Assembly (NCBI GenBank): GCA_030650425.1
Contig: JAUSED010000005.1
Span: 14,932-78,931 of the forward strand
Source of the DNA: Candidatus Omnitrophota bacterium
Lineage (GTDB): Bacteria > Omnitrophota > Gorgyraeia > Gygaellales > Profunditerraquicolaceae
DNA length: 64,000 bases
Direction of reading: 5' to 3'
Shown: positions 15,001 to 39,000 of the stretch, in pieces
Numbering within the stretch: the first letter of the stretch is position 1
Layout of the letters: each line of letters begins with the position of its first letter
Position numbers and translations under genes: made by a program
The notes under the pieces: model-generated
Databases searched by the model: none
What the model was told of the DNA's origin: nothing
The model's input: the letters and a program-made list of their open reading frames with translations, nothing else

Positions 15001-18000
15001 CCTTTCACCGGCAGAGTGGTGATCGCCTCTTTGGATTTATCGGTTTTACGCTGGGCAATGGAGGAGAATAAAACCGGCAAACACAGGTTTACTATTCTCA
15101 ATACCTTTGACGGCGTAGAAATCAAAACCGATGAAAACTTAGCGGTCAAGGAATTAAGCGAGGATAAAAAGATTAAAGTCAAAGGCATTGCCCACACGCT
15201 TCCCAAGGGGACTAAGTATATAGAAGGGAAAGAAGGCATTCTACCAGTGGCCTATGATAAAGAGCTGAATGTGCCCAAGGCCATTGCTTATAGCCTTGAT
15301 CCGCAAGTAGGCACCAGTTTTATCTATAACTTGAAAGAACTAAAGAATGTGGAGATCATTAAAGAGAATAAAGAGGTTAAATTTAATAATGGTACCTCTA
15401 TTCTCCTTACGCCGGGTACTTCCGTAATTTGGTATTATGATCAGGATGGCAAGACTGCGGTTCCGTTGATCATTGAATATGCCAAGAACAATGAAAACAA
15501 AGGCGCCAGGATTGAGGATAACGAAGGAAACAGCCTGCCTTTTGCCCAGCCGTTTGGCGTAATGGATAGCAAGAAGGAGCCGGATAAAAAAGGCATTCCT
15601 TACGCGGCAAAAGCCACGCAGGAAACCAATATCCAGAATGAATATAAATCTAAGCTCTACAATGAATATATGCTGCAGGTAGTCAGGCTGAATCAACTGC
15701 GCCGGCAGATGGTGGCGTTTAATAAATTGGCAGAAGCAATTAATCGTTTGTCACTGGATCAAGAAAAGGCGCGCAATCTTTTGGATAAACTCTACGGTAT
15801 GGAGTATTGGAAGCAGCAGCTTAATTTAGAAATGCAGATGGCAAAATCTAAGGTGCAGGGAGAGCTGAATAATATCGCCAATGCCAAGTCAGCTTATCAA
15901 AATGAGTTAACCAAGGCTCAAGCGGGAATTGAGAGCGCCAATCAGGAACTGTCAACGGTAAATGCCAAGATTAGCGAAGCTGAACAGCTTTTGGCTAAGG
16001 CGCAAGCCAGCAATAATAAAGAACTGGCTGACTTTTTGCAGCGCATACTAAACGGCGATCTTGAACCGGGCAGCACTAATAAAGGGTTATATAATTCTAA
16101 AACTGTGGCGCAGGCCAATCTTAGCAATGCCCAAGCATATGTGGGTAAGTTAGAGAGTAAGGATGTTAGCGCAAGCGATGTAGTTTTGGATTATGTAACT
16201 GCTCTGCGTAACGAAGTAGGATTAAGCACTATCAGTAATTTTGCTGATGGCGTAGGCAAGGATTGGCAAAAGAATCCGCTGCAGGTGGTAGCCGCGTGGA
16301 AACAATATCAAATCGCAGGGCTTGACCCGAATGAAATTCAAAAAGGCATAGATTATTATAATCAAAAATTAGATTTCCTAAAAAATACTGCCGTAGCGGA
16401 TTTAGATACCAAAACAAGCGGCGCCCAGCAGAATCTGGCGGATTTGACCAAAGAGCAAACTGACTTAAACGGCCCGGCGATTGTGAATAATAACTTTAAT
16501 TCGGCTTCTGTCGCGGGCATCAAGGCGGAAATAGACTTCATTTCCGGCCAGAATCGGGTGGATACCCTGCATTTAGAAGCCCTGGATACCAAGCTTTACT
16601 ACGCTTCCGGAAGACAGCAGGATGTGGCGAAATTAATTCCACAGACGCAAAAATACCTTGAAGACCTTAATGCTAATAAAATAAGCGCGCAGGCAGCAAT
16701 CGCCGGACTGGAAAAGTCCATTCAGGATGCCCAAATTTACAAAGATTACCTCGCGCAAAATCAGCAGGTGGATACGGTATACCTTGATTGGCGGGAAAAA
16801 ATGATCAGCGATACCTGGGGCGCCTTGAACTTGAACAAAGATGCCAAAGCGCTTGTCGCGCAGGCGATGGATAACATTAGCCAATATCAGCGTGAACACC
16901 TCGTAGAAAAAAGAGGGCTTTATGCTCAAAGGGACAGGATTGTTAATTTAGGAGAGAAGATTAAAGGCCTAGCTAAAGAATACAAATTACCTGAGCCGTA
17001 TCTTTTCGGTAAGGATGAGCTGGATAAAGTGCTTAACGCCGCCTATCCTGAAGTTGAATATCTGGCTTTCCAAAATGACGGCGCGGTAGGAAATATGATG
17101 TGGACCAGGGATTTGGTCAGGGCCTTAGGTATCAATTTTGATTTAGGAATGTGGGGTATTCAGGAGGGCAAGAATAATCCGGCTGCCACAGGCTGGTCAG
17201 TGTTAATGGCCAAGGAAGGCGAAACTTGGACTTCCCTAACCAAAGCCGAATTGGTTAAGAGGATACAGACAAAACAAATCGGGCCGGGCGCGTCTGAAGT
17301 TGAAAAAAATACTGAATACCGCGTGGTGCTTCTGGAGAGTTTTGGCATTAATCCTAGCGGCAATCTTACTTTTGTTTACAACGGTTACGCGGACTTAGAC
17401 TTGGATGGCAGCGGCAATATCTACGCCCATAATCTTAACCTGCGCAACGAGTTTGGCAAAGACAAGCAGTTTTTTGGCGAGCTCAAAGCGAGTATGGTTT
17501 CACTCTCTAAATCCGGCACGGAGTTATTATATTGGAAAGACCAGCAGGAGATTAAACATATTCCGGCAGCGATTGATGTAGCGGAAAAATATTACGCGGT
17601 GGATTTGAACTTTGGTTATGAAAAGGATGGTAAAGGGATTAATTTCTTCGTGCGCTGGATTCAGGACACCTCGGATTATTTCGGATTTAATGAAATCTTG
17701 CCCGGCATTGGCGCAAAATATTCTTTCGGTAAAGTGGTAGGTTTACAGGGAGAGGCTACACCGAAGACTATAAGGATTAACACCTCAGTCAAGCTGCCTA
17801 AAGATGCTACGCTTGATTTTGGTTGGAAAAACGATAATCTCTACCATAAGAATTATTATAGCGCCAGCCTTGAGATTCCGCTTCCGGTTTTCAGGCAGAT
17901 GAAAGTGCGGATGGAGGCTAATCTCGGCGAAAAAGGGAGCAGTTTTTACGGCCTTAAGGTTGGGCCAATTTATAAAGTGGATAAGAAAGGCCAAGAGAAA

Positions 18001-21000
18001 AAGGCATTCCCGATTAATCCGGAAAATAAGCCACAGTTGATTGAGAACGTGAACGCCTGGATGGCCAAAACTACGCTTAAGCCGGCAAAATCCGCTGAAT
18101 ATCCTCAAGCGCCTAAAAATTTCCTGAACCAGACGATGGTTATAAACGGTAAAGAATTTACGGTAATTTATTCGCCTGAAGGCGCCTATGTTTACAGTAT
18201 GATGATGTTAGATTGGGGCGCGAAATATTCTCGGGATAAAGAGCCGGTAAAATTAAGCGAAGAAGAATTTTATACCGCGCGCAGGCTGAAAGACATTGTG
18301 GAGAAGGTTTCCGAAGACAAATTGAATCAGGCCGGGATCTATAAGGAAGTTAAGAGTAGGGAAGAATTTTATTATACCTTAATCAAAGGCCAGAAGGTTT
18401 ACCTGAATGCCAGATTTGTAAAGGGTAAGATGGTTGCGGATAGGGATGCAATGGAGATGCTTATCCTGCTTAAGGCGGATACCTTTGAAGTAGTTGACTT
18501 AGGCAAAGAAGCCTTGGATTTAGTAACCAAGATGCGCCGAGAAACCGGAGTTCTCTACGCGGATAAGATGCATATACTCAATAATACGGAGTTGCAGGAG
18601 ATTATCAATGGGGGATATTTGTATGGAGTTAAAAATAAGGAGAATAAGGTTGTCCTGAAGGCAAAAGGATATCAGGGAATGGAAGGGGTCTTGGAGCTGG
18701 GGATTGGCGGCGTATCTATCTTAAGGGATGTTGTCAAGTCTTCGTATGTCCGTTTAACCCGCGAAGACGGCCAGACGCGTTTTATTAAAGCTAATAAAGA
18801 ATTGCCTTATACCATTAAGGCTGAATTAATCCACGATAGCCGGGCGCCTCCGGAAACCACCTCTGGATTTACTTTAAGAGAGCTTACTCCTGCCGAAGTT
18901 AAGAGCCGCAAATTTGCTGTGGTTGACGCGATTTTCACCGAATCCGGAAAGCATTATTTAGTTGATTATCTGCCCTATCAAGCCGAAGAAGAATTAGGAA
19001 AACCTGCCGTATATTTGCATTCAGAATTAATTACTATTCCCGTCTCCGGGCGAGATTTAAGAAAAGGCGAGATTAACATTCCTGATTTTGCCAAGATGAG
19101 GCCAGCCAAGAAAGATGAGCTTAGGTGGGAATATAACCCTCTGCTTGGCGAAAAGGTAAAGATTAAGATCTCCGGCCAAGAGAATGCCGCTACTCTGTCA
19201 ATAAAGAAAGACGGCAAGGAGCATATTGTTTCTTATTCGCCTGAAGTCGAGGCGTTCTTTGATTGGGTAAATACTTATAATTACGCCTATCAAAACATCC
19301 CGCAAAAAGGGATCAAGGTTTACTTTAGCAAAGAGGAAATGCCTACCAGCTGGTATCCTGAGAAAATTGACCAAACGCTGATTGTCGGCAAGCCGCAATA
19401 TTTTAGCGATGACAAAAAATACGGAGAGGCAATTGTTAAGATTGCTTCCCTTTACGGCTATAAAGAGGCCAAGGCATTTGAAAAAGAATATCAAGGCGCT
19501 GTATTTGATTTAAGGACCAATGGCTTGGTGGTTTATACTGACAAAGGCCGCGATGCCGTATATATCATCCGCTATCAGGATGACCAGGAGAGGATAGTTA
19601 CTGAAGCCATCAAGTCCTTTAAAGTAGGCCAGAAATCTGAGCCGCTGACGGTTGCGCAGGAAACAATTCCTTACATCATCGCCTTAAATAATTTTAAGGA
19701 TGGTAAAGAAACCGATGCTAATACTATCTTTACTAAGGTGAAGTTGGAAGATTTACGCCGCCTTGATAATTACGAGCAATTCAAACAGCTAATATTAAAG
19801 AACCAAACAATGGTTACTGCACACTCGAAAAGCATTACCCCTCAAGAAATCCCATACCAGCAGATTAATAAGATCATCGAAAAATTTGCAAGCTTAGGAT
19901 ACAAGGCTCTTAACCGGGACAAAACTCCCTACAGGGCAGATAGTTTAAAGAAATTAGTTAAGATAGCCAACCTTAATCCTGACGGAAAACCGCGGAGCTT
20001 TGAGTATCAAGGTTTTGGCGACTCTAGCCTTCCCCGTATCAAGGTAATTGAAGGCAAGGTTCTGGCCTTTGGCGAGTATGAAATAGAAGGCCGTTTCGCC
20101 GATATCGTCTTTGACTACCAAGGCAAAAAACTAAGCCTGCGTTTTGATTTGGATAAACAATCGGATGAACCTATAGCCGTATCGTTCTTCATTGATAACC
20201 AGAGGACTTTAGTTATAGACCTTTATAAAGAGCTGTTATTTATAGATGTAAGAAACAAAGATCAGGGTTACTGGACAATGCGCCAGCACCTGAGAAAGAA
20301 CGGAATATTTGATAGTAAGTGGAATGAGATAATAGACAATATCAGCCATATTTTTGCTTATAAAATAGATAGGGAAGAGAGCTTTACTTATGATGGCCAT
20401 CCAGCTTACCATCCTTCTTTATTGAAAGCATTGGAGATACCTTCTATTACTAAAACTACTTATTTAAAGTATAACGGTGAAACTAAACCGATTGAAATCG
20501 GGTTGGGTAGATTGGTTACAATAGATTCTGAAAAAGGGCTTATACAGTCAGAAAGCATAGTACACATTTATAATAAACTTAATCAATTCTTGGGAGATGT
20601 TACTTATGTCGCGTATAGGGATTTCAAGGGTAATGTGAGAATCCAGACTTGGGAAGGCATAGTAAATGGAGAAAAAATTGATGTTGCAACTTATGTAATT
20701 GATTATGATAAATATGGCTTAGGTTACGATTCTTTCACTATTATCAATAACGAAATAAATTCTTACACCAAACATGTTGGTAAGGATAGGGATACCGGTT
20801 TATTCTTTTTCTTAACCTTGGAAGGAGTCTTCTCTCAAGTTCCCGGTTTACAGGCTGTCGCCATAAATAATTACGAATTACTTAGAGAAAAATTAAAAAA
20901 TAAGGATGCTAAGATATTCCCTAAAGGTTTGAGGAGTGTCAGTCTTGCTGGTAAGACCGGAGAAGGTAAGATGTCTAGGGTTCTGGAAGGGTTTGATGAG

Positions 21001-24000
21001 TCTAAGTCTGCCAGTTTGTTATCCGGAAAGGCTAACGGTGAATTATTCAAAAAAGACAATCTCTCCAGCCTATTTGATACTATTACCTTTATTGAGCATG
21101 TTCAGACAATTAATAGCGCTTATGAAGCAGGCCCGTTAAACTTAGGGTATGGACAGAAGGGCAAGGCGTACCGTTATAAAGGAAGTTTCCGAGAATCGGA
21201 TTACAAAAGAGCTAAGCTGATAAGCGAAAGCGATCTTTTCGACATTAGCGATGATCTGCTCTTTATCTATAATATTAATGATAGCCGTGTGGATAAGAAG
21301 AGCCTGAAACAAAAAGCGCTTCATCCCATAGGGTTGTTAGTCTGGGAGTTTTATAAAGACCAGACACTCTTTGGCCTAGAGCGTTGGGGGAAAGATCCGG
21401 TCAGAAAAGTTTATTATGATTCCGTACATCAGGTTGCCAGAGAGACATTCAGGGTTAATGGCGATAAGCTTGAGCCTTTATACAAGCATGTAGTGGTATT
21501 TATGGAAGACCTTCCGGGTTTCTATTGGGTTGGGGATATAGACGTATCTAACGGCTGGACGGATAAAGTAAATAAGGCTTTTGATAATACCATTGTCAAT
21601 GGGCCAAAGGTCAAACATTTAACCAGCCGCAGCATTTTCAATGACAAAAAAGAATTATTGGAGGTATTGGCCAGAGAGGAGCTTATCGAAAATAACAATT
21701 CTGACTATATATTCTGGAATATTAATAGTGCAAAAGAATTGGAGTCGCGTTTGTCAAATACTGGAATCAATGATTCAGATAAGCAACAGATAATGGATAT
21801 ATATGGCCATTCTTTGTTATCGGTTTCGCTGATGAATTCTAAAGATGCGAAAGAACTCTTGTTAAATCGCAGGGGACTGCTTTTCTATTTAGATAAACAG
21901 AAAGAAGAGAGGAAGGATCAGTGGAGGAAAGAGTATAAGATTCAAGCATCTGATCTTTGGGGCGAGTTTAAAGAGTATATAGTCAATGTAGGAAGATTAA
22001 CAGGAGTTAACAGTTTCTTCCCGGTTCATAGCACAGATATGAGCTTTGGCAAGGCATTGGCTATTTTAGCCCTTTTGATAGCGGGGAGTATATTATTAGG
22101 CATAAAACTTGCAAAGTTAAACGTATGGGCAGCAAGGGGATTGAGAATATTATTATGGTTTGGCGCTATTTTTACCATAGGCGCGATATTCGGCCCATTT
22201 AAAGCATTAGTGAGCTTGGCAGTATTGAGTTTGGGAGTAACGTTAATCCGTTTACTTATGTTCCCGCTCTTGCGGCTTTTAGTGAACGTATTCATCTTGG
22301 CATATGTAGCATTTGGTAAGAGGGTAATTCGATTTAAAGGTAATTCGTTAAAAGATGAAGCTCTTTATGTGATAGGCAAGGTCTTGAGGTTTATTGTGTA
22401 TCTGCCTATCACCTTACCATTTATACTTATCGGTCGCGTTTCAAAACTGTTAGTTGTAGCAGTACATAAGAAAATAGGAGCAATAGAAAATTATAAATAT
22501 GAAGGCTCTGAGCCTAAAATTATTGAAGAGCTTATCGCGCGCTTCCCGGCATTTTCTTACGCTAAACTATTCCTCCACTATTTAGAAAGATTATTAGAGA
22601 GAGATCTAAATGGCCTCAAAAATGAGTTCTATGGCGAGAAAAGCAAAGAAAACAAGAAGAGAGAAGCAATTGAAAAAAGAGAGGCTTCCCTGAGGGATGA
22701 GCTGCCGAAGCAGCACGTAGAAGATCTAGATAAGGAATTAAAGATTCAATTGATCCTAAGGCCGATTGTTGAGTTGTTCCAAATCGTGCTTAAGGATGAA
22801 GGTGATCGCTACGAGCGTTACGTTTCAGGAAAAGAAAGACGCGAAAAAGAGAGCATCCCTCTAGTAATGAGTTTCTTCAAGGACTTTATTGAGTACTACC
22901 TAAGGGATCAAGGTGCAGGAATAAATGTAGGCAATCCTCTAGATATTGCTGGAGCAAAAGATCTTCTTTGGAAGATAGCCGAATATCCTGCGGATGAGTC
23001 TCGCGCAGAGGAATCCAAAAAAATAGCGCAAAGAATAATGAAATATCTGCAAGGGAAATACGAAGGCAACGCGTTATATCTGCCGCAGTATCCTTATGGG
23101 AAGATTCGCGGCTACTTGTTACTGCACTATAGATTCGCCAAGTATATGTTTGACGCGGTAGCTCTTTCAAATGGACTCGATAAAAAACTTGATGAGCTAG
23201 AGAAGAATCCAACAACAAAGGAATGGGCTAAGAAACGCAAGGAAGAAATAGCGGTTAAACGCACCTTTATGGCAGTGATGTTTGCGACTTGGATTGGCTT
23301 TAATATTGCGCTCGGAGTGATAAGCCTTTTCTATGTCTATAACCTATTGCCTCTTTTGGCCCTGCCTTTTGGGTTATTGCTTTTTATAATGAATATGCGT
23401 TCGTCGTTGCGCACCTTCTGGTACCTATACTTAGAGGCCATTGCCACATTAGAGGATAAGGCCGCTTATAATGATTACAATAAGCTGCGTAAGTCCGCAT
23501 TAGAGCAAGTCATTTCCGATGATTACCTCAAGTATGCTTATGAAAATTTACTAATAAAAGAGACTTTAGAGCAATACGGCCTTGCCAGTGAAGAGGCAAT
23601 TAAGAAAATGCTAGATGAGCATAAAAAGGGCAATATCCTTTTGCCTGAGAAGGACGTTTCTATTCGTGGAAAACGAGTGATTATATATTTCTTCAATATG
23701 GCACAATTATACAAGGAAGGGCAGAAAGAAGGAAAGAAAGAATATATTGATATAAGTAAGTTGAAGTTCTTAACTATGCATATATCAGCTTATACAGATA
23801 ATGTGTTGCCGACTTCGGAAGTTTTGGATGGAGATGATCTGTCTAATCCTGTCGGTTCAGGCCGGGTGAGAGCGGTAAAATCGACATTCATAATGCTCAA
23901 AGAAAGTTTTTACGAAGAATGGATATTTTTTGTAGCCAAAAAATTTAAAGGACTTAGTATTGAAGATAAGGAGGTTATATTAAATCCAAAAACATCATTT

Positions 24001-27000
24001 AAAAATACTGTCAAGATATTATTAAAGGTTAATCCCGGTAAAAAAGAGAAAGAAATTAGAGAAGATATTATTAATAACTGGGTGGCTTACAGAGGAACAT
24101 ATCTTTACAATACCACAAAAACTATAGAGCACTCTGCGATCCCTGCGTATAAGCTTTTATTTATGAATAAATTAAGTAACTTTGTTACTCTCAAGGATGC
24201 CGAAAAAAGGATTATTATAAATTGGTTCAGCAGCTATTTTGCTACAGTAGTGAAAAGAATTGAAGATTTAAGCAAGGAGGAAGACGAGCTCAATAAAGCA
24301 ATGATAAGAAAAGAAGAAGAATCTAAAAAAGAGAAAGTAGCAGATAAAATCAATAGAATCAGTAAAGAAATTGAGGTAATAAAAGAAGAGCTTAAAAAAG
24401 TGCAAAGCGAAAAGGCAAAACTTGATGAATACAGAAAGAGACTAGAGAGTATCCAAACCTCCGGTAAATATCAAGTATTGATTAGTGAATGGGAATCCGA
24501 TAGTGAAGCTGGCAAGAAATTTAATGAGAAGATGCAGAATGAGATAATTGAAGACCTAATCTCTAATTATTTACGTATACTATTAATTTATAATTTTGAT
24601 ATGAACAGCCAGAAAAGGGATATTGACAATGAAAATATCTACAAAGAATTCTACAATAAGGGTTGGACAGTGAATAAAAAATCATTGCGGACCATTGCTG
24701 CTGCCACTGATGAATCTTCCCGATTTTACGATAGCAAGGTTCAGGCTTGGGCATTTGCCCGTCCGTATCTAGGCCCGCAAGAAAATAGCGGGGTTCTGGG
24801 AGCTGAAGGTTTACAAACTCCGGGGGTATTATTTTCAACTGACTGGTCGCATTTAGCCTTTCCCGCTAATTTCTTCCTGCTTCCTTATGATACTTACGAA
24901 TTCACTAAAGATCATAAATTGGGTATTCTTCTGGATAAATTATTAATAGGCGATGAAAATATTACTTCGGCTAATGAATGCGCCAAGGTTTCTGAAGATT
25001 CCTGGAATACCAGAGTTATTCCGCCAAAATCTGTGACTAATACTCCGAGTTATTATGGTAAAGGTATGATGCTGGTTGACGCACTGGATGCGGTTTATGA
25101 ATCTAAGATTGAAGATACGGCCTCAGGTAATGAAATCTTAAAACAGGGGTATGCCAGTCGTTACAGCCCGAGGACAATACTTTATCAGGCTAGAGAAAAG
25201 GTGTATGGAGCATTCCCGGCTTTCTTTGGCAGGTTTGGCGCTCCCATTGCCGATGATTTTTTATCTGTACGTTTCCAGAAATTTATTCGCTCGCCAGATT
25301 TGGATTGGTCAGAAAAAGCAGGGATTATCCTTGACTATGATTATTATCTTCATAAACCATGGATTCTAATGTTGAATTTTACCATTTATGTACTTGGTTT
25401 TTATCTTATGTGGAATGTATTCAGCTACTTGGCGCTTCCGCTTATTGCAGTGGTCTTGGGACAGATATTCTCCCAGTCTATTACCGGCTCTTCCGCCGGA
25501 TACTTTATCAGGGAAAGAGGATGGTTTAAAGGCTGGTCGTATCATATAGATTTATTCTTTAGGATGATATTTGTATTTGTTCCTTTTATACCGTTACTCT
25601 CCAATAAGATATTTCAGGCGTTAGAGGGACTATCTGGGGTCTTTACCCGCGGGCTCAAAAGTACGGATTGGGCAAAGGTTCCTTTTAGCGACCTGTTTCA
25701 GGTGTTTAGGCGAGGTATCATAATAGGGTTTTGGTTGGGATTGATATTTATTGTCTCGCCATATCATCCCTATGGCATTCTTGCTCCAGTGTTTTTCTTT
25801 TTCTTCCCGCTAGCTTTTATTATCGGCCCGTTTTTGAACAATGGTTCATACTGGGCTAGCCTTTGGCAAATTATATCCGTTATTCCCTATCTATTATTTG
25901 ATTGGGTGGTGAAGTTTACAGAAGAAAAGGCGTTAGTAAGGGCATTGAATAAAAATTGGGGGCAACTTAAAACTAAGATTAACGCGGATAAGGACCTTAC
26001 GGAAAAATCAAAAGAAATAATTATAAAGACTGTAGAAAATATTTTCCTCTATAAATTAATCTCTGATATTAAAGATAGAAGTAAGATAAATCTGGTTTGG
26101 GAGAGGTTTGATTCATTAATCCCAAGGATAAATATTACCAAAGATGGAAAGCTGCATAAGTTACTGTCTTTAGAAAACAAAGATTCAGAAAATAAGGATT
26201 CGAAACGAAAGATATATCCTTTTTTAAAGAGTTATATAGTTATAAATTCTGCAGGCGATCAAAATATAGGCGCCAAGAAGAAAAGAATATTGCAATGGAA
26301 TTTTAAGACTATACGGACCAAGAAGAATAATATTTCTGAAGAACTCGATAAGTATGTTGAGGGCTTATGGTTGAGAGAAATATTAAAACATTTACAAGAC
26401 ACAGGAAAGAGTATTAAGGAATTGACTGGAATAGCCGTTGAAGATTATCAGGTTTTTATTTTTGATATAGACGGAACGGTATCGAATAAAGTATCCTTGG
26501 ATGTCAGCCCTAATGCTGAAACTATTGAGCAGTTGTTACTGCTCAATAAGACGGTAGTGATAGTCTCTTTTGCCGGAATCGAAAAGCAGATACAACGCAC
26601 GTATGTTCCTTTAAAACGCTCATTAGAAAGAAAATACCGGGCTGATGTGCTGAAGAATTTCTTTATCTATTCCTGCGGAGCTGGAGCGCTTGCTACGTAT
26701 GACGCTAAAGTCAAACTTATAGATGACAGGGGCGAAAATACCCCCGGGTGGCTGGTCGCGGATAAAGAGTTTACTTTTAATAATGTTTTTGGAAAGACTA
26801 GCGCTAAGATAATTGGAGATATAGCGCAAGGGTTGTTGGATTATATGTATGAATCTGGCGCTAAACAAAGTATTTTTAGTGATGATGTGCTAGCTAAAGA
26901 TAGGGCTTGGGATACTGACAACGCTAATAAAAAAGTTGATCGGCGCGGAATTACATTACTGCTTCCTAAGGGCGAAAAAGCCGGTGATTATTATGAGAAG

Positions 27001-30000
27001 GCTAAACCACGGACAGTATCCCAGCTTGCATTTTACGCTCCTCCGGATTTAAGGTTGATGCTTTTAATGAAGATGAGGCTGTTAGTTAAGAAAGCAATTG
27101 GTTTAAAGTTAGAAGAGGTTAGGAAAGAGCTTAGAAGCCTTTTAGGTACTCAATCTGAAAAAGTTCTGCAGAAAATAGGCGGCGATAAGGAACTAATCAG
27201 AAATTTGGTTTTATGGGAATATTATAAGGCCATAAAGTCGGAGGATGATACAGAAGGATTGTTTAAGTTCGCAGAAGCAAAGATTACTGATAGCCTTGGT
27301 GCTTTGGTGGATAACGAGAATAAGGCAAAGATTATGGATCTTTTAGCTGCTTATGCGGATATTTCCCGTCCAATTGATGTCAGGGAAGGTGGCCAGGTCG
27401 ATAAAGGAAATACCGTAGAGGTCACTCTTATTACAAAAGGTGGAAAACTAAACGCGTTGGAGAATGCCGTTAAAAGATTGGCTAATAAAGAAATGGAAGG
27501 TATGTCCGGAGAGGAAAAGAAGAGGCAAAAAGAAGCAATTATCAAGAGAATAGGCAGTCACGCAATGTATTTTGGCGATGAATGGTGGCTTCCCGAAGAT
27601 CCAATCAAGGTAACATTAAATCCGAAAATTGACTATAAGCGAGTATTTGATCTTAATACATGGGAAATGACGCCGGAAGAAAAGTTTATTTATGAAAGCT
27701 GGTTTCTTGGCGACATAATCAAGGATGATAGAAAACTTACTGAGGTAGTCAAGCAGAGGGCTAAGGATACTGGCGAAGTCAGAGAAGGCGAATTGGCGGG
27801 AGATAAGATAAAAGAAAGAGTTGAGCTTATAAAAGGTAATCCTGCTAAATATTATTTTAGCCTTGACCAGAGCGGAAGTTTCATTTATGAAAATAAGCTT
27901 TATTGGCGCGGAGAAGGTAATGATGTTTCAACAGTATTCCATCCTGATGCTTTGAAGGTATGCGTAACAACCACAGATAGAATACCGCAAATTTCTAATA
28001 CGATAATGAAGGCAGTGGGTATAGGTAAAAAAGAGAAAGGGAAAGGCTATATCGTTTTAGACAAGCCGGAAGAGCTTAGCGCGGATTATCATGGAGTAAA
28101 GAAGATCAATACTCTAGCTTTTAAAAATGCAGGGGGGGATGGTTATTCTTATAAATTTGTCTGGATGCCGCAAGGTGATCCTGACGCTACCGCCAGATGG
28201 CTGACTAAGTGTATAAATGAAACAATACTGGAGCAAAAAGTTTCATCATCTTCCGCGTTAAGCTTAGGAAAATTGTTTATAGCGGCAGCCGTTCCAATGT
28301 TTGCTTTTTCAGCTTGTGCCCAGAGCGCAGTACAATCACCGTTAGTTACACAAATCTTTAACTCGATTTTAGATAATCCGTATATCAGCATTATTATAAT
28401 CGCAGCGTTGTCAGGAATATGGATTTATCTTAGAATAACTCGGGTACTAAGATTGATTAGGAAATTAACCAATTCAGAATCCGTTATCCGCCAATCCGCC
28501 TATGATGCTTTAGAAAAACTAGGTGCATTAACAACAGATTTAGAAATCAGTAAATATTCTGTAGATTTAAATATTAATAATATTGATATCACTGCAATCA
28601 ATGCCTTGAGTAAACTTAATGCCTTAACTACTGAACAACAAGAAAAGGCAGTCACATCTTTAAGGAATATGTTAAGTATTGCAAATGAAGAGATCCTATC
28701 TATTCCCCAATTTATCATTACTCATTATGCCGGAGAATCTTATAATCCTATTCCTTGGGAAAAGCCGAGAGGATATGAGATTGATGGTTATGAGGAAGAA
28801 ATTTTAACAGAGGAGAGGGTAGAAGAGAATTATGACTATTTTATAATTAATAGTCGCATAAATAGATTAGAAAAAGAAATTAAAGAAATAGAAAATCTTA
28901 AAACTTGCGATAGGGTTTTACTTCAAACTTCAAAGAATAGTTTTAGTGAACTAGAACAATTCTTAGCCGAAGCCCAAGCTCAAGGCAGAACAGTTTCAGC
29001 TAAGGCTTTAGCCGAGGAAATTGAGCGTAGGAATAAAGAGGGTCAGGAAAAGGAACAGAGGGAAAGAAAATTCGCTGAGTTGACCTCAGCAATGCAAGAA
29101 AAAGAAAAGATTATCGCTGAACTCAAAATCAGGGCAGTCGAGCTAGAAGCTAAACTCAATGAAAGCCGCCAACAGGAATCTAACGTAACCAGTGATTTAA
29201 ACCAAGCTCAAACCGAGAAAGCAAAAATTGAAGCTGCAATAACTGAGTTAACTGAAGATATGGCCGGGGCTACCCTAGCGAAAAGAAATATAACAGTCAA
29301 CGTTCTATCCGCTGCTCTTAATCAGAATCAGCAATCACTTCAACCATTGGTCCAGAAAGCTCAGGAATTAGAGAATCTAAAAATTACTTCAGCCAAACAG
29401 ACAGAAGTAATAGAAACAAACCTTTCCTTAATTCAACAAAACTTATCTACTGTTAAAAGAGAATTAGCAGCTCTTGATAAAGTGATGAGTGATTTACGAT
29501 CTTCCAGCCCTATCCAAACCGGTGCATTGGTTGGGACGAGGTTTGAGCAACAGGTTGCCCGGTTGATGGGCGTGGGGTCCCTTAGCGAAACCCTACGCGG
29601 TATTGATATTAGAACTAAGGAAGAATTGGCTAACGGGGCTATAGGGCAGATTAACTCGTTCTTAGCGGCAAAAGGCCTTTCCCTAGATATCATTACTCAG
29701 GAGCAATTTAACCAATTTTTTGGAGTGCGGCCCATAGTAATGGCTGCGGGTAATGCCACTAGATTCTCAAGGTTTATCCATAAGTGCCTTGCCTTCGCAG
29801 GGTTAGACCAGACTAATATCGCTAATGCCATCAAAGGCGCCTATACTTCTCCTGAAATTCTGCCGGTTGTAGCTGTCTCAGAAAAAATCTTTGGGATGTT
29901 GGTTAAAGATGAATATTTGAACGGTTATAATACCAGTAATTTTCACTATACTGTCAACGAAGATATTAAAAAAGAATATATCGTTGAACGCGCCTTGGGG

Positions 30001-33000
30001 AATAGCGAAAAAATCACCGGCAGATTAATATTACCTGATAATGAGATCATTGATCAGGGGAAAATGCTTAAGCTTTTCGGACAAGAGGCCATTCTGGCCT
30101 TAGCGAATTCCAAAGGCCATGGGGATGCTTTCATTATGATTGCTCAAAAACTTAAGGAAGTCGGTCTGCTTGCGCAGGTTGCCTATCTGCAGGTAGCTTT
30201 TGGAGAGATTTCGCCAGCAGTCTTGAATAAATATTATAACGCTTCATTTATTACCTATATGGAGGCGGTTGCCCATAATCATCTGGTTGTCAGTGGAGGC
30301 AAGATATCCAAGGGACAACTTAAAGCAAAGGGTCACTTTTTCTTCAACAATGGGCGCCTTATCTCTTATACAGATTGGGAACAGATTCCCCATAAGGCTA
30401 AGATGGCAGGTTATCAATATGATAAGATAGCCGAATTAGCCCCAGAGCAGGAATTATTGGAAAATAACTTGAGGGACCTTATCAAGGCGCATCAGGCAGG
30501 CGAAATTAACGACGCTGGTTTTAACGGTAGAATCACAGTTTTAAGGAATGAGCATCCCTATTATTTGATTTCTGATCAAGGCGTACTTTTTAGCCAAGAA
30601 ACGCTTGAGACAGCGGCAGAATATGTCAAAACAAGCTGGGCTAAAGGGTATAGCGATCTTACCGAAGGATTACGTAAAATAATCGATGATTACTTACTGC
30701 AAGTAAAAGATGCCAGCGGAGAAGAAATTACCGCGTTTTTAAATAAACATTTCGCCATTGAGATTGTTGATATGAAGAATAATAAAGCCGACATATTGAT
30801 TTCATCCAATACCGGAATCTTTAAATCGGAAGAGCTGATCCATTATCATGAAACAATAGCTCAACTCTATGACCAATTTAAAACGGCAGGTGAAAGTAAT
30901 CTGTTCTGGGGAATAGAACCGAAAGATAATTCAGAAAAAACCCTGACTTGGAATATTATCAGGATGATCGCGCAAAAGCCAGACAAGCAATCCCAAAGCG
31001 GCTTTCGTTTTGTAGGTGATGCGCCAGCATCTATCAAAGATGGTTCGCGTCAGCTTGGTTTTGTGAAAGAGTATCTTGAAGAATTCGGGATGCCTCAATT
31101 ATCGACAGTTATTGGATCTGAAGCGGAAACTATCGGTGCATCTTTAGAGCATCAGCAAATTGATCAGGCCTATAATCAATTCAAGTCTTCTATCGCGGAA
31201 AAAGATTTTGCCTTCCTACGCACACTTTTAGAGCAATTATTTATTTTCTGTTCACAAAAAGCTTCTCAGGGGAACCTCTTGGAGCTTATAGAAAGATTAG
31301 AAGCCAATCCGGATGAAATCGCTTCTTTAACCATTCTTAGCCAGCATTCTGCGCGGGCTCCTCCAGTAAACTTAATTAAAGGATTACTTATCCATACTCA
31401 ATATGAAGCCATTGATAAGGGTTATCTCTTTGAGGGGTTGGATAAGAGCCTTTGGATAGAAGAGAAATCTCCCCATCTTGCCGCATTATACAAACGTATT
31501 AAAGTAATCGCTGAGAAAGACAGCGATTACCTAATTGTCAGAATCAATGATATCGCCAGCCTGCTTAATGGAAATAATAACAATTCAGACATACAATCAT
31601 CCTCTGCCGTTATCAACCCGAGTTCGTACCTGCTAAATATCTTTTCTGAAAATCTAGCTCTATTAAATGCCTATATTGATAAAGCAGCCGTTGCCAGAGG
31701 GCTCAGCAAAGAAGAAATCATTAAAGGGATGTTTTATCCGGAAGATAGAGAGAGCGTACGGGGTAAGATAAAAGAAGAACTTTCTAATGGCCGGACCGGG
31801 CAGGAGAAGGAGAAAAGAGAGCGTTATCTTTGTTTTGGTGGTGGCAGCGGTACGTTGGCAATTTTGAAACCGCTAAATAAGCTTCTAACTTCTTTAAGTT
31901 CGGATAAGGCAGCTAAAAATGCTAAGAGATTTGTGCATGTGTTGCAGAGTTCTATTGATGACGGAGGCTCGACCTTTAAAATGATCACGGGATTGATCAA
32001 AAAAGGCTATGGCTGGATGCCTTCTGTAGGCGACCTAGTGAATAGCTTGTTTAAAGGCTTTGGGTCAACGGCAAAGTTATATAAGGTATTGGATGACCAA
32101 GGCCGCGTGAAATTAGCAAGTGAAGTTGACCTAGAGAAAGGCAAAATTCCGGCTATCGATAAGACCGGCAGGCCATTTGAAAAGGGAAAGATTGTATTTT
32201 TTGGGGAAGGATACGATACTGGCGATAAAAATGATGTGGTATACGTGGATACCTTTAGAGATTTAATGATTAGATTATTAAAACGTAATGTTACCTATAC
32301 TTTGGTTACGGAGGGCGGTATAGGTTATATGGAGCCCAAGATAAAGGCTTTAGACGAAGATTACGTGTATTTTATCAGCAGTATGATGAATCTCGTAGAT
32401 ATTATCGAAAGGTATATCAAAGATAAGGTTATTCCGTTGGATGGCGCCAGCATCAGAAATTTATTGTTGTTGGGGGCGATAGACTACCTCGGCTTAATTG
32501 ATATCCAACATCCGAAGTATAATGTTGGGGAACTTGAGTTCTTAGCGGCCGAAGAGAGAGAGTTTAAGCTTTTCCACGAAGGCTTAAAGGCCCTGGCTAA
32601 GATGGCGAAACTGGATGAAGTCGTTAAGGTGTCGCTTTCGCATAAGCATCCGACAACCGTGTATGCTGTGTTTGATGAGACTGTGATTTTGATTGAGGAC
32701 ACAAGTATAAATTCAGAAGAAAATAAGTACGTGGTTACAATAAAGGTAGATAAAAATCCCTTTCTCGAAGCGGAGGTTAGAGTCCACGGTGGTAAATACG
32801 GTCCTATAAAATACCCGCCGGTACGCCTCGGCTGGAAAGAGCTTATCGGAGTAGGGGGAGGAATCGAGATCTGTGTTCGGATCAATCAAGCCGGAGAGGC
32901 GTTAGTTAGTATTGGTAGGAAGGAAGATAAAGAACTTAGCAGGGAGATTAAAATCGTGGAACAAGAGTTTCTTGAAGAAAGCTATATTGAGTATATGGGG

Positions 33001-36000
33001 AAGAATTATCGAATGGTAACTGATGGGACCGGATTACTGCGTGAAGAAGTAAAAGATGCAAAGGGAGTATATGAATATAGGCCGCTTTCCATAGGGGCAT
33101 TGAATATTTTCATTCGTAATCGATTGGTCGCTATGCAGACGCATGTGACAGAGACCCCGAACTACTCTAAGGTTATAGATTTTGGGGTTGCAGAAAAAGT
33201 ATCGGAAGAATGGGTGAAAGTGGAAGAAAAACAAGAACCCCAGTTAAGGAATATATACAGGAAAAATCCAAAGCTGCGTTTGGTTTGCAATAAAGATGTT
33301 ATTCGGGATATCTTATCCAGTAAAACAAGGGGTATTACCTTTGGCCCCGGCTCGTTCTTTACCAGCACCATGCCTCACTTTTTGGTTAAGGGATTGGCTA
33401 AAGCCTTGGTCCAGCGTAGGAAGAGGGGTGATATTCCCATTATCTTTATTTTTAATCCTAGCGTAGATAATGAAACAGCAGGCTACAGCATAAAAGACTT
33501 GATGATTTTTGTTAAGACAAAAACCGGGTATAAATTTGACCAGATGTTTACCGGCATCAGCGTAACAAAGTTCGATACCGTAAAATTGGAAGAAAGTTTT
33601 GATGTTGACATAAAGAACCGGCCCTTAGGCGCCGATTGGTATGTTGAACGCGTACTGGAGAATTCGCATTTGATTGATGAGTTGGGGTTAGAATACATAA
33701 AGATGCTGATCGGAAAATATAGGGAGATGGAAAGGAAAGGAGAAGTAATCCAAGATGATGACAGGACAGAGATCATTGGTAAAGAGGCCGGCCGAAAGGC
33801 GAACCTGAAGGAGTATCTAGAGTATAAAATAGATCAGCTATTAAAAGCTCTTTATGAAAAACCCGTAGCAGAGATCCGCACAGACCCCGGTCAGGATTCC
33901 AAAGAAGCAAAGAAATCCCGCGGCCCCTTGTACTTAACTAAGGAAGATCAGTACCAGATTATGGAGGAATATAGGCAATTAAGGATCCACAAAGATGAGT
34001 TTATAGCAGGTGTTGAGTTTAGGCCGCCTCGAGGGACAGGAGATAGTTTAGGTTTAGGCATAGGGTTCTGGTCGGATTCTACGTTATACGGATTAGGGGA
34101 TGTGTTAGGGATTACAGGGTACGCCCAAAAATTAACCGAGGCCTATAAAACTATGGTTAAAGAAGAGGTGCCTGTGGAGCGCAGGGATGGACAGGATGAT
34201 TTCGCTTATATCTTTGACCAACTAAAACGGGCTATACTAATTAAATTAGACTCGGAAACACGAAAGTATTTTAACCAGTTATCGCTAAATGGCTTTAAAA
34301 GGGCGGTCAAAGGGGTCCTGATACGTGAAAATCTGGAAAAAAATAAGAAAGTTGGTTTTGGGATCGCCTTAAGGGCGAAGTTAGAATTTAATAATGAATT
34401 TATCTCTAGCCTAAAAGAGATTAAAGCGCAAATTTCTAAGATTATCCAGGGACGCGTGGAGTTTGATGATGAGTTACGGCTTAGCCTATTGGCTGTGGTA
34501 CGCACTAAGAATTACGAGGCAGGAAAAACAGAATCAGTTTATGCGGCGTATGAAGCAGTTAAAAGAGTTTTAGGAGAAATTGACAATTTCTTTGCGGAGA
34601 ATGTCTCGATTTATAACGGTAAGCTGATTAAGAGCGTAGAAGAAGGGATCAGAGAGATTGTGAAGGTTCATCAGCCTTTTGCCCTGAGGGTAACGGGTTT
34701 GAATTGTAGCGGTGGAAGTGGCCAAATCTATTTAGAGCTTGAGCCTATAAACCAATACGCGACAGAAGGAATATTGAAATTATTGAAGGTGCAGAAAGAC
34801 CTCGAACGCCTGCCTACAGAGTTAAGGATAAAAAGGTTGAATTTTACTTTGGGCCGCTTGACGCAGGCCTTAGATGATGAAGGACTTAAGGATTTGGATA
34901 GATTAAACAAAGACCTGGATTTTACCCATTTCATGCCGTTGAATGTACGTCAATTGGAGGCTTTGATTTATTGTGACCGACTCCACCGTGTTGTGGCAAA
35001 CAAGATTGATTTGACACTAGGCATAGAAAACGAGGTATTCAGTTTTACCGAGATGCTAGAGATTATCCGCACGCGGTATCCAAAGGCATTTGTAGCGTCA
35101 TCTTCTCCGGTTAATTCCAATAATATATTCAACGCCAATGGTTCGGTAGTTAAACCAATGCACATAGTCATGGTAAGCGCTGAGGCATATCCTTGTTCTT
35201 ATGCAGGATTCTTAGGGCAGAATTTAAATAGGCTAGCGAGGTCTTTTGGAGAAAGAGGTATCGAGGTAACGGTTATTATGCCTCTATACAAAATAACCAA
35301 AGATCAATATAGCGCCCAGTATAAATTTTATGGCCAGATTGATGTACCAATCGGTTATCAAACAGAGAAAGCAAAGATAGATATTCTTTCCGATGAGACA
35401 GCGGTATCCTATTATTTTATTGATAATGATAAGTATTTCGGAAGCGATATGTCTTATGGTGAATCTGGCAGATCTGATGATGCCAGTTATCAGAATCAAG
35501 CAGATCGGTTTGTCTATCTACAACGGGCCGCCTTGGAATTAATAAAATCCGGCATAGTGGCGCGTCCCGACGTCATTCATGTCCATGATTGGCCTATTTC
35601 CTTAATTCCTCTGCTGCTTAGCCCAAATACATCCGTATATAGTGATGACATAGCTTTAAAGAATATACCGGTTGTTTTAAGCATTACTAATTTCACCTAT
35701 AACGGAATATTTGATAACCCGTATCATGTCGCATATTTAACGGGTCTACACCGGCCTGCGCAGGCAGTTTATCCAGCGGCCTTGGAATTCTACGGCCAAG
35801 CAAATTGGTTAAAAGCAGGGATAATGTCCGCTAGAAAGATTGTTACTGTCGGGTCTACCTTTAGAAACGCGACATTAACCGCGGAATCGGGATTTGGATT
35901 AGAGAATATCTTAAAACTTAGAGAAAATGATTATTTAGGTATATTGCCTGGAGTTGATTATGAGGCCTTTGACCCGGTAGAGGACGTATGTATTGAAGAA

Positions 36001-39000
36001 CGATACACTGTAGAGACTATTGACCTTAAGAGTAAAAATAAGGAAGCCTTATTAAAAAGCTTTAATCTCCCTCTGGAGGATATAGGTCAACCGATATTAA
36101 CGATAATTTCGAAGCTGGATAAAATGAATGGTATGGATTTATTAGAACAAACAATGGAAGATGTGCTGAAATTGGATACTAAAATTATTATTATGGGAAC
36201 CGGGGAAGAAAGGTTTGAAGATTTTTTTAGGAGGATGAAAGAAAAATATCCAAAACGCGTCGGATTATATATCGGTTTTGATTCAAACTTAATGCATCTG
36301 ATGATTGCTGGCAGCGATATATATATAATGCCTCATTCTGCTGTGCCTGGTTCATTTGTCCCCCTGTATAGTTTAAGGTACGGCACAGTTCCTGTAGTAA
36401 ATGCCATTGGTATGTTGAATGATGCGATAATAGATTCAGGACTGCCGGGAGAGCAAACCGGTTTTAAATTTCATGGTTATTTGCCCAATAATTTACTCTA
36501 TAAAATAACCGAAGCAATCGAAATCTATAGAAGGGATCCGCAGAGGTGGGAGCAGATTATGAAACAAGGGATGCAGCAGGATTTTTCTTGGAATATAACA
36601 GCTCAAAAATTTGTAGAGCTGTACAAAGAAATACAAAATCTTAGCTGGCTGGAAGAGAGCATTATACCGCCATTTAAGATGGAGAGAGCCGAAGGGATAG
36701 GTAAGAATAATATATTTGATATTGCTTTACCACGGAGTAAAAAAGACAATTTAATTAGCGGATTCGAACAAGCTAAGCGCATAATCTCATTACGTTACGC
36801 GCAGGATATAATTAACCCCGATGATTTGTGGATAGAAATTCTCAATATGCAAGATTTATCAAGGCACCGGAAAGACCGGGATAAAAATATAATTTTACTG
36901 GATATGGAGGTATTAAATAACCCCGATTTGGTTGCCGCGCTGATGATTAAGGAAGCAGAAATAATCGTTAATAATGGGGTAAGTGGGGAAGAACAGGCAT
37001 TAAATTATATAAGAGTTTGGGTGGATCTTTTCCAGCATTTTCATGCTCTTAATCCTGATAAACAGGCAGGTTTCCTAGCTTCCCTCTTGTTTGATAAAAG
37101 GCATGATAATAAGTGGCTTATTTCATCATTAGTGAAAACTTATAATCAAGAGTTTATATTTAAAGAGATGTTAGATGTATTAAAGCATAATCCGCAATAT
37201 GAAGTGGTGGCAGACTCGGCTGATATTTTCGAAAAAGCATATGAAGAATCCGCAGAGAGAAATATCCTTACTTATATATTAGAATACGCATATTCTAATA
37301 ACCAGTTTAGTTCGTATTACTTGAATAAAAAAGATTTTGAAATCAAATTTAGTTTAATAGTTCATATGTCGGGGGTAATGGCGAAATGGAACTATGCCCC
37401 CGTTGTCTTTTGGGATGTCCTATACCAGGAATTAGTTAAAATTGGTTTTGCTAAAGAAGTTACCCTATATTATGATCGAAAAGAAGAGGGAAAAAGTGGA
37501 ATAAAGATCTTTATTCCCGATTTTGAGAAAGTACCGTATTATCAAAGAGAAGAGCAACAATTGATAGCCGCCAGATACATCGCGGCTTATATTAATAACG
37601 GAGCAAATTCGATAGGGGCTTGCCGAGTCCTAATAGAAGGTGTAGACGAGGTTTTCTTTTTAATTATATCCCAAGTATTTAAAAATGGATATGACAATCC
37701 TTTAAATAAAAACGCTGAAACCACCAGCCAATACTTAACTAATTACTACGGGGGAAACTTTATTATAGAATTAGTCAAAGGAAAAATACAGGCATTAGAA
37801 GAGATGCCAAGATTAACTATTGAGCGAGAGGGAATGTTTAATCCGTTCAGAAATGTGCTGGTGGGTTTAGATATGGGCGGCTCTTATATAAAGCTGGTAA
37901 TCATAATCAATGGCAAGATAGTGTCTCTTGAGCAAGATTCAATAGAGACGGGGCAATTTAAAAGACTGGAAGACGGCAGCCAGATTGTGCCTGAAGACTA
38001 TACAGGTGAAAATTTATTACAAAAAATTGATCATTTTGTGCGCTCATCTTTAAAAAAAGCTAGGATTAAACTAGAGGAGGTAGCCGCAATAGGCGCAGCT
38101 TGGGCGGGCGCGATACGTAACAATAGAATTGCAGGCTCTTCCACTATGCTTTTTAATCTGAGAGACTATTTTAGCAATCCAGAAGTGCAGATTAAAATGA
38201 AGAATTTGTCTGATACATTATCCAAAATATTTGATAACAAGCCTGTTTATCTTATAAACGATGGAGACGCAGATGCTTTTAAGATGAGCCTAGAAGAAAA
38301 TCTCGCTGATGTGCTTGTGTTAAAATTAGGAACCGGTTTAGCGGGCTCCTATATCGATAAGAGTGGTTCGATAGCCATAGGCCTCCATGAATTCGGGAGG
38401 ATACAATTGAATTTATCCCCTAATGCAACACGGCATCCATTTACGGGAGTGAAGGGATTAGGAAGATTATATGTTTCCAGCCAAACAGCAGTTGAATATG
38501 GCAAGAAAGCGGGATTAATAGATAAAGTAAAAGAATTGGGGAATATGTCATTTGAATCTAAAACGGTCAGTATGTTGATTGCGGCAGGATGGGATGCCCA
38601 GTATGTTTTTGAAGACGTATCCCGCAATATCGTTGATGCCATAATACATTTACATGAATTTTACAATAACAGGAACGTTTTACTATCAGGCGGGGTGTTA
38701 AAAGGGGCTACTGGATCATTTGTCCATGAAAAAGTACAAAAATTATTATATACCAAATACAGTGGTTACAAAATCAAAACCTACCTAGCAGCTGAAACGC
38801 AGATTGGTGGAGCAATAGGAGCAGCGCAATGGGCTAATTTTAATTACCAATTAAAAGAAAAGCCTACGATTAATGAGTCAGCTTCTTCTGTAGTTAACGC
38901 TCCTGGCCCGGATCTGTTAAATATTTTTTCCAATAATACCGAGTTTTTAAAAAGCTATACTAAAAAGGCGGCTAAATCCAGGAATATTATGGAAGAGAAT

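Follow-up and report, generated by a model that had tools for sequence, protein, structure and literature searches.

Two in-frame copies of a domain leader in a giant bacterial open reading frame: a probable case of recent sub-domain reuse

The stretch of DNA that was analysed (64,000 nucleotides (nt) of contig JAUSED010000005.1, assembly GCA_030650425.1; hereafter the window) has no stop codon in frame +1 over its entire length, and 752 to 2196 stop codons in each of the other five frames. Thus, the window is an internal piece of one open reading frame (ORF) of more than 21,333 codons. Two sites in this giant ORF carry nearly identical copies of a short module, which is described here as a leader. 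At site A, the module (copy A) forms the N-terminal part of a conserved but uncharacterised domain of about 680 amino acids (aa), and at site B it is present as the leader alone (copy B). Both copies begin immediately after the sequence R-S-S-S-P, which belongs to a family of junction motifs that recur in the ORF. The coordinates of all features are compiled in Table 1.

Both copies lie where an earlier note on this DNA had placed them. The note had given an identity of 96% over 157-185 bp. This value applies to the core of about 157 nt, in which positions 29524-29679 and 50506-50661 differ at 6 of 156 nt (96.2% identity), but not to the extent of 185 nt. Over 29518-29682 and its copy the identity is 94.5% (9 differences in 165 nt), and over the full extent of 29497-29682 and its copy it is 90.9% (17 differences in 186 nt). 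Aligning the copies reproduced exactly the six core differences that had been listed, four of which are synonymous (Q/Q, R/R, L/L and G/G) and two non-synonymous (I->T and N->S); the SSSP site directly in front of each copy was confirmed as well. With a spacing of 20,982 nt, or 6,994 codons, the two copies share the reading phase. Outside the repeat, the identity reaches the background of 27-37% within 30 nt at both edges. A 29-mer of the core, which occurs twice in the window, did not appear in 100 shuffles. Further copies, for which the earlier note had suggested a search, did not turn up: phmmer, blastp and a hidden Markov model (HMM) derived from the orthologues detected two copies only in the window, and the 64-aa module alone has no relative in 185,579 species genomes, the JGI metagenomes and the IMG/VR viral collection. 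Moreover, it has no homologue in a word index of 5.8 billion proteins and no Pfam match at E <= 10.

The origin of the module became apparent from the domain that follows copy A. With this domain as the query, a related protein (P0001) was found, and the alignment of the two sequences led to eight loci in genomes and three in metagenomes. The related loci are labelled L001 to L012, and about ten of them are independent. Their aa identity to the site-A domain is about 30-47%; the best relatives are from metagenome-assembled genomes of Candidatus Omnitrophota (45-50%), and others have been binned elsewhere. All relatives sit in very long open frames, and L003 is open over its entire 21 kb. In every relative the similarity extends upstream into the module (query start at aa 9838-9853), and the leader follows the pattern ..[VI]A[RK]LMGV.[DS]L…QR……A..[AI]…I…L..KGL.L..[IL]TQ.QFN.LFGVRPIV.A.G.ATRFS. 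An HMM of the leader, applied to about 200 kb of the relatives, identified one instance per domain copy, always joined to the full domain of about 660 positions. L010 and L012, which had been left out of the building of the leader profile, show the same attachment of leader and domain. What looks like a gene boundary ahead of the leader in L004 was dismissed: it is a run of N in the database entry, and L005, which is identical, has an open frame across this region. Furthermore, an HMM of 663 positions built from eight sequences of the domain has two matches in the window, one of 878 bits at aa 9839-10518 and one at site B (aa 16833-16890) that involves its positions 2-60 only. Because the leader of the relatives is always joined to the domain and only the first positions of the model are found at site B, copy A is, as judged by this comparison, the ancestral and native leader of the ~680-aa domain, and copy B is the leader alone.

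A leader-only copy was found in none of the relatives examined, and none of them has a leader at a position like that of site B. The leader in front of a different domain is thus a single case (site B), seen in this lineage only. The earlier note had regarded the repeat as a conserved adaptor or leader peptide. The term leader is justified, because the module is the N-terminal leader of the same domain in about ten independent loci; however, it does not appear to be a general adaptor in front of enzymes. Two units of leader plus domain per ORF occur in tandem in L007 (4156-6171 and 6166-6747) and, split by a CofD cassette, in L005 (1-350 and 2600-4311). Duplication of the whole unit is common in the family, and duplication of the leader alone was seen in the window only.

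The two copies also allow the age of the duplication and the selection on it to be estimated. By the method of Nei and Gojobori, the 54-codon core has accumulated six synonymous and two non-synonymous substitutions, corresponding to 0.165 synonymous substitutions per synonymous site (dS), 0.017 non-synonymous substitutions per non-synonymous site (dN) and a dN/dS of 0.10; for somewhat larger cores, Fisher p lies between 3e-4 and 9e-4. If one of the copies were unconstrained, about 9.4 non-synonymous substitutions would be expected, as compared to 2 observed (Poisson P = 0.004). The purifying selection on the module that had been proposed earlier is therefore borne out. Among the other internal duplications, two C-terminal pairs have dS values of 0.7 and 0.9, and a pair of ~1,100 aa is saturated. 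Since its dS is the lowest among the duplications and non-synonymous changes are too few, no other internal duplication in the window is, by these counts, nearly as young as the repeat, and the repeat has been maintained at the protein level. The identity far above that of the other paralogues, the same phase and the sharp edges are all features of a recent duplication or gene conversion. The note had also read the substitutions as evidence that frame +1 is translated. Frame +1 is indeed coding, but the argument is redundant given the open frame of 64 kb and its Pfam domains. Moreover, the pattern by itself can be read in two ways: in the antisense frame with the same wobble positions, the copies differ by only one amino acid.

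Structure prediction suggests that the leader is a small helical unit. The AlphaFold2 (AF2) model of the monomer comprises helices at residues 5-24, 29-34 and 38-58 with a predicted local distance difference test (pLDDT) score of 76.6. The model of the ~680-aa domain, which was computed from two sequences, has a pLDDT of 31 and is unusable. No relative of this domain was detected in Pfam, NCBIfam or the PDB by single-sequence and profile searches (E <= 10). However, a glycine-rich loop (AAGNATRFS; AGGYATRFS in the relatives) and the motif GHGD are conserved in all relatives. The likeness to a nucleotide loop was judged by eye, and the site-A domain may be nucleotidyltransferase-like. The label 'NDP-sugar pyrophosphorylase-like' (NDP, nucleoside diphosphate) in the earlier note thus agrees with the short motifs AAGNATRFS and GHGD but not with the profile searches of the three databases. 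The comparison with NDP-sugar pyrophosphorylases and UDPGP-type enzymes is similarly divided: a glycine-rich loop that looks alike by eye and GHGD are shared, and the same ORF encodes ROK, phosphoglucomutase and GT5 domains, but profile-level similarity to the NTP_transferase or UDPGP families is lacking at E <= 10.

The junction motif in front of both copies is a prominent feature of the giant ORF. In the window translation, SSP occurs 47 times (~3.7 expected), SSSP 21 times (~0.3 expected), and RSSSP is the most over-represented 5-mer (8 vs 0.013 expected). The residue after SSP is V, L, I, A or M at 45 of the 47 sites. Three positions around SSP show enrichment, with R at -2, S at -1 and E at +2 relative to the motif. 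The motif can be written as (R)(S/T/A)SSP-[VLIAM]-(E), with 47 sites between window positions 229 and 63132 (aa 77-21044). The sites form two clusters (aa 77-3113 and 9835-21042), with none within aa 3114-9834. SSP lies 5-20 residues ahead of the first conserved element of the Response_reg, GT5, PGM/PMM, CofD and GNAT domains, and 5 residues past CBM30. Overall, 6 of 22 domain edges have an SSP within 25 aa, where 1.2 would be expected (p = 5e-4). A DNA-level element was ruled out as the explanation for SSSP because the serine codons vary widely, and the motif is thus a protein-level one. The flanks upstream of SSP are mostly unrelated, two small junction families excepted, so that the motif seems to arise independently at its sites. 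It is also kept at the ends of old paralogous cassettes. Candidate roles of the SSP motif are those of a linker, a processing site or a modification site.

In the relatives, SSP is not enriched. A single SSSP is present in L002, the closest relative (4435-4446, aa 1479); it lies where the site-A domain adjoins a CofD cassette, and the aligned position of the window (~31600, aa ~10535) reads SSSAV. The motif at this position is therefore older than the split of the two lineages and able to decay. A junction element of about 30 aa (N[VT]DSL..SP…EL.NKS..T.RSSSP[AV]E) is present in three copies with 79-83% nt identity (56514-56600, 61044-61130 and 61959-62045). Within the C-terminal third of the ORF, even the junction peptides thus seem to have been duplicated. 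The second junction family is located at aa 18137 and 19804. A similarity between the peptide before copy A and that after copy B (DK[VI]M..LR.SSP[IV]) was discarded, as 7 identities in 27 positions are non-significant given ~1000 comparisons. Sequences that start right after SSP include LKTGALVGTR…, VIGNVGGLNEER… and MAKNIPLTR…. Another one, at window 4813-4890 (aa 1605-1630), is MAKNIPLTRRGFIKLTAFLVGL, a look-alike of a twin-arginine translocation (Tat) signal. The TIGR01409 model scores this region with 15.7 bits (E 0.015), below its cutoff of 16.7, and weak matches to GH88 or alpha-alpha-toroid proteins are found downstream. An internal N-terminus of this kind would work only if the chain were cut or re-initiated there. 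The Pfam search of the window returned no peptidase or protease family.

Copy B and the linker behind it make up a mini-cassette of ~95 aa, which contains nothing else and has an SSP junction on either side. The repeat is indeed upstream of the kinase-like domain that the earlier note had described at site B, but it does not directly precede it, because the linker of 30 aa and the second SSP junction intervene. The assignment as kinase-like derives from short motifs (IGEGGYSTVFKV..AFVLKI, DVKLANV and IFDID); Pfam, NCBIfam and PDB profile searches with aa 16925-17231 gave no match. No homologues of the site-B cassette are present in the searched collections. The cassette upstream of site B contains the sequence LMGGGVRDIFFDSEITDADVSI (window 49759-49824, aa 16587-16608), for which Pfam and NCBIfam have no match and which we take to resemble the GG.VRD…D.D head motif of poly(A) polymerases and CCA-adding nucleotidyltransferases.

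Table 1 Features of the window; amino-acid positions refer to the frame +1 translation of the window, in which the Pfam domains were searched
Feature	Position (nt)	Position (aa)	Strand	Remarks
Single uninterrupted ORF	1..63999		+	Frame +1, >21,333 codons, no end within window
GGDEF		464-575	+	Pfam
Response_reg (receiver)		834-933	+	Pfam
GT2		2172-2469	+	Pfam
CBM30		~2635	+	Pfam
LysM		4078	+	Pfam
SSSP junction before copy A	29500..29511	9834-9837	+	Context DLR-SSSP-IQ
Copy A of leader module	29512..29688	9838-9896	+	Core 29524-29679; contiguous with native domain
Rest of conserved uncharacterised domain (~635 aa)	29689..31590	9897-10530	+	Motifs FGVRPIVMAAGNATRFS and GHGDAF
CofD-like		~11068-11179	+	Pfam
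GT5 + GT1 glucan synthase	35161-36549	11721-12183	+	Pfam
ROK	37861-38835	12621-12945	+	Pfam
PGM/PMM I-IV	43855-45165	14619-15055	+	Pfam
CofD		15628-15986	+	Pfam
Cassette upstream of site B	49606..50478	16536-16826	+	Between SSSP 16532 and SSSP 16828; no family assignment
SSSP junction before copy B	50482..50493	16828-16831	+	Context NLKR-SSSP-LK
Copy B of leader module, leader only	50494..50670	16832-16890	+	Core 50506-50661
Linker, 30 aa, acidic or helical (PNENKAELAKQEAAEGVEELILDVDKIMLNLR)	50671..50760		+	Directly after copy B; no similarity to site-A domain
Second junction R-PSSP-V	50761..50772	16921-16924	+	Closes mini-cassette
Cassette downstream of site B	50773..51693	16925-17231	+	Next SSSP ends it; protein-kinase-like motifs
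GNAT		17284-17364	+	Pfam

By its architecture, the host gene belongs to the published class of giant Omnitrophota genes, as far as can be read from domains and hydropathy. Its length lies above the size of at least 10,000 codons in a single ORF by which Omnitrophota-type giants are recognised, and it is tiled with enzyme domains that agree with the Pfam lists of both preprints on such genes (bioRxiv 10.1101/2023.11.21.568195; bioRxiv 10.64898/2026.06.07.730766). Moreover, a crude hydropathy scan without a topology predictor (Kyte-Doolittle mean >1.9 over 19-mers) indicates 33 transmembrane-like segments, in line with the multiple transmembrane segments of the class. A stretch of ~4,800 residues (window 15001-29400, aa ~5000-9800) is devoid of Pfam matches and SSP motifs. 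Several hydrophobic segments lie inside this stretch at aa 7352-9462. A part of it (aa 8139-9420) is conserved in L004 and L007, where it is also in synteny with the site-A unit.

The region downstream of site A contains an old internal duplication of ~1,100 aa, which includes the CofD-like domain (31810-35130, aa 10604-11710, and 39088-42399, aa 13030-14133). The two copies have 59% aa identity and a saturated proportion of synonymous differences (pS 0.77). Both end with KYP.AF…SSSP, and in each case more sugar-enzyme cassettes come next. Two ROK-like regions, aa 12617-12950 and aa 14272-14594, are paralogues as well (27%). Together with the site-A domain (29689-31590), the ROK, PGM/PMM and GT5/GT1 cassettes would convert glucose via glucose 6-phosphate, glucose 1-phosphate and NDP-glucose to alpha-glucan in one polypeptide. 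The pathway logic of the fused cassettes is conditional, the pyrophosphorylase step being proposed from motifs alone.

We consider it likely that the leader copies represent in-frame reuse within one giant ORF, in which copy B is young, lineage-specific, under selection and possibly employed as a docking handle. According to this proposal, the N-terminal leader of about 55-60 residues and three helices belongs to the ~680-aa enzyme-like domain, to which copy A is still attached. Segmental duplication or gene conversion of the leader alone would have generated copy B 21 kb downstream, where it landed at a recurrent (R)(S)SSP-hydrophobic cassette junction and is closed off by a second such junction. 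Since then, the protein sequence of both copies has been preserved by purifying selection. The retention of a three-helix unit without its domain is most simply explained by an autonomous interaction handle. The leader could thus fold autonomously and, by docking or oligomerisation, contact either the site-A domain or a partner. The second copy would provide the same contact for another region of the giant protein or, if the junctions were cleaved, for a fragment of ~95 aa. The part of the reading that assigns this function to the leader is tentative and less likely than not. The docking or communication-mediating domains of polyketide synthases and nonribosomal peptide synthetases are helical units of ~30-60 aa, which are located at module termini, can be swapped and mediate specific protein-protein contacts. 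The analogy to the leader concerns the mechanism only, as there is no relationship in sequence or fold and the leader is embedded in one polypeptide.

Several other explanations have to be weighed. Copy B could be a functionless passenger, that is, a recent partial duplication in frame, which is tolerated and too young for decay. The cores are separated by just 8 substitutions, a leader-only copy is absent from the relatives, the lack of homologues of the neighbours of site B suggests a fast-evolving region, and the old duplications nearby have a relaxed dN/dS of ~0.6. However, dN/dS is 0.10, with 2 non-synonymous changes where a neutral copy predicts ~9, albeit over few sites, and a dS of 0.17 is not very recent; we regard a passenger as rather unlikely. 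It is similarly doubtful that old paralogous leaders existed at both sites and that the core of 96% identity is a gene-conversion tract, as in concerted evolution. This scenario would account for the 24 nt on the 5' side of the core (SSSP-xx-TG), which are homologous at the protein level but ~62% identical (9 differences) as compared to 96% in the core, and thus form a boundary-like step. However, SSSP recurs independently at 21 sites and does not require homology, nothing aligns past the 3' edge, and a leader at a site-B-like position is missing from the relatives. The data are compatible with a single duplication as well as with the conversion of an older paralogue; with gene conversion, the element would have another history but still be the same element. 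An artefact of the assembly in the form of a collapsed or chimeric repeat is highly improbable, because the 6-17 differences between the copies form a codon-aware pattern, the 64-kb ORF runs through both in phase and without a stop, and their flanks are unique.

The possibility that the giant ORF encodes a polyprotein, in which the ~47 SSP sites are processing junctions and copy B is freed as a mimic of the site-A leader of ~95 residues, serving the site-A enzyme or its partner as a small assembly or regulatory subunit, seems improbable to us. In such a polyprotein, the Tat-signal-like sequence after the SSP at aa 1605 would likewise become a functional N-terminus. It has hardly any credibility that conservation acts at the level of the nucleic acid (a structured RNA or an internal regulatory site) or on an antisense gene. 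The antisense frame is open over both cores (87 aa at site A and 165 aa at site B) with one amino-acid change. However, it shares wobble positions with frame +1, and a low number of changes is therefore expected; the open stretches are unequal in extent and have low-complexity translations. For the same reasons, an antisense ORF of 152 aa over copy B (50400-50858, minus strand) is most likely spurious. Rfam has no match, RNA folding is not unusual, with z-scores between -1.3 and +0.6, and the sense-strand protein is conserved in the orthologues at 30-47% identity. Finally, the module might be a divergent helix-hairpin-helix (HhH) of the RNA polymerase alpha C-terminal domain (alpha-CTD) type that binds nucleic acids, which we hold to be very improbable. 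With its last helix and the final 'L..KGL.L', the leader is similar to the end of an alpha-CTD unit (PF03118), and a protein with tandem PF03118 units (P0002) was the single match in an exhaustive HMMER search of 1.84 billion representatives (E 6.6e-5). Moreover, a local hhalign comparison gave P 1.3e-4 over the last ~29 columns. However, the E-value of P0002 is the sum of partial matches of 4-8 bits to the last helix, the hhalign probability was 9% once the richer orthologue profile was used, Pfam has no match to RNA_pol_A_CTD at E <= 10, and the leader model lacks the compact (HhH)2 fold. The homology was thus rejected on Pfam, profile-profile and fold tests.

Three points weigh against the in-frame reuse of a selected leader as we propose it. 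The assignment to the Omnitrophota comes from 30-50% identity of one domain and from the architecture, as the window has no marker gene, and the selection test is based on 8 substitutions only. Furthermore, a close relative of this lineage is not present in the searched collections, and what is said here on the age, distribution and number of copies applies to the window and its more distant relatives.

With the Omnitrophota giants of the 'Archaeovorin' type or 'multi-enzyme metabolic cluster' (bioRxiv 10.1101/2023.11.21.568195; bioRxiv 10.64898/2026.06.07.730766), the giant ORF has in common a length of tens of kb, many transmembrane segments and the domains PGM/PMM, ROK, Response_reg, GT1/GT2, GGDEF, HEAT and HATPase_c. 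The internal repeats of these giants are mostly ancient according to the same preprints, and most duplications in the window are old as well; unlike them, the leader repeat is young. Neither preprint describes the leader, its 680-aa domain, a young dispersed copy of a leader alone, a cleavage point or a motif at the junctions; the family of leader plus domain is unannotated. The SSP junctions may be likened to the short recurrent cleavage motifs of viral and cellular polyproteins, but they could equally be structural linkers or modification sites, and the cleavage points of giant proteins are stated to be unknown (bioRxiv 10.1101/2023.11.21.568195).

It can be stated that the repeat reflects the partial duplication of a domain; this is an ordinary event, although the host gene is unusual, and no new mechanism is demonstrated. 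Open questions about giant bacterial genes, which have been recognised recently, concern their evolution and whether the encoded protein works as a single chain or is cut into parts. For this class of genes, the locus provides a clear case of recent and selected reuse of a part of a domain, which contrasts with the published view of ancient repeats. It also identifies the leader of a widespread, unannotated domain of ~680 aa as a separable unit, and the SSP motif at domain boundaries offers concrete candidate sites for processing or for linkers in the giant protein.

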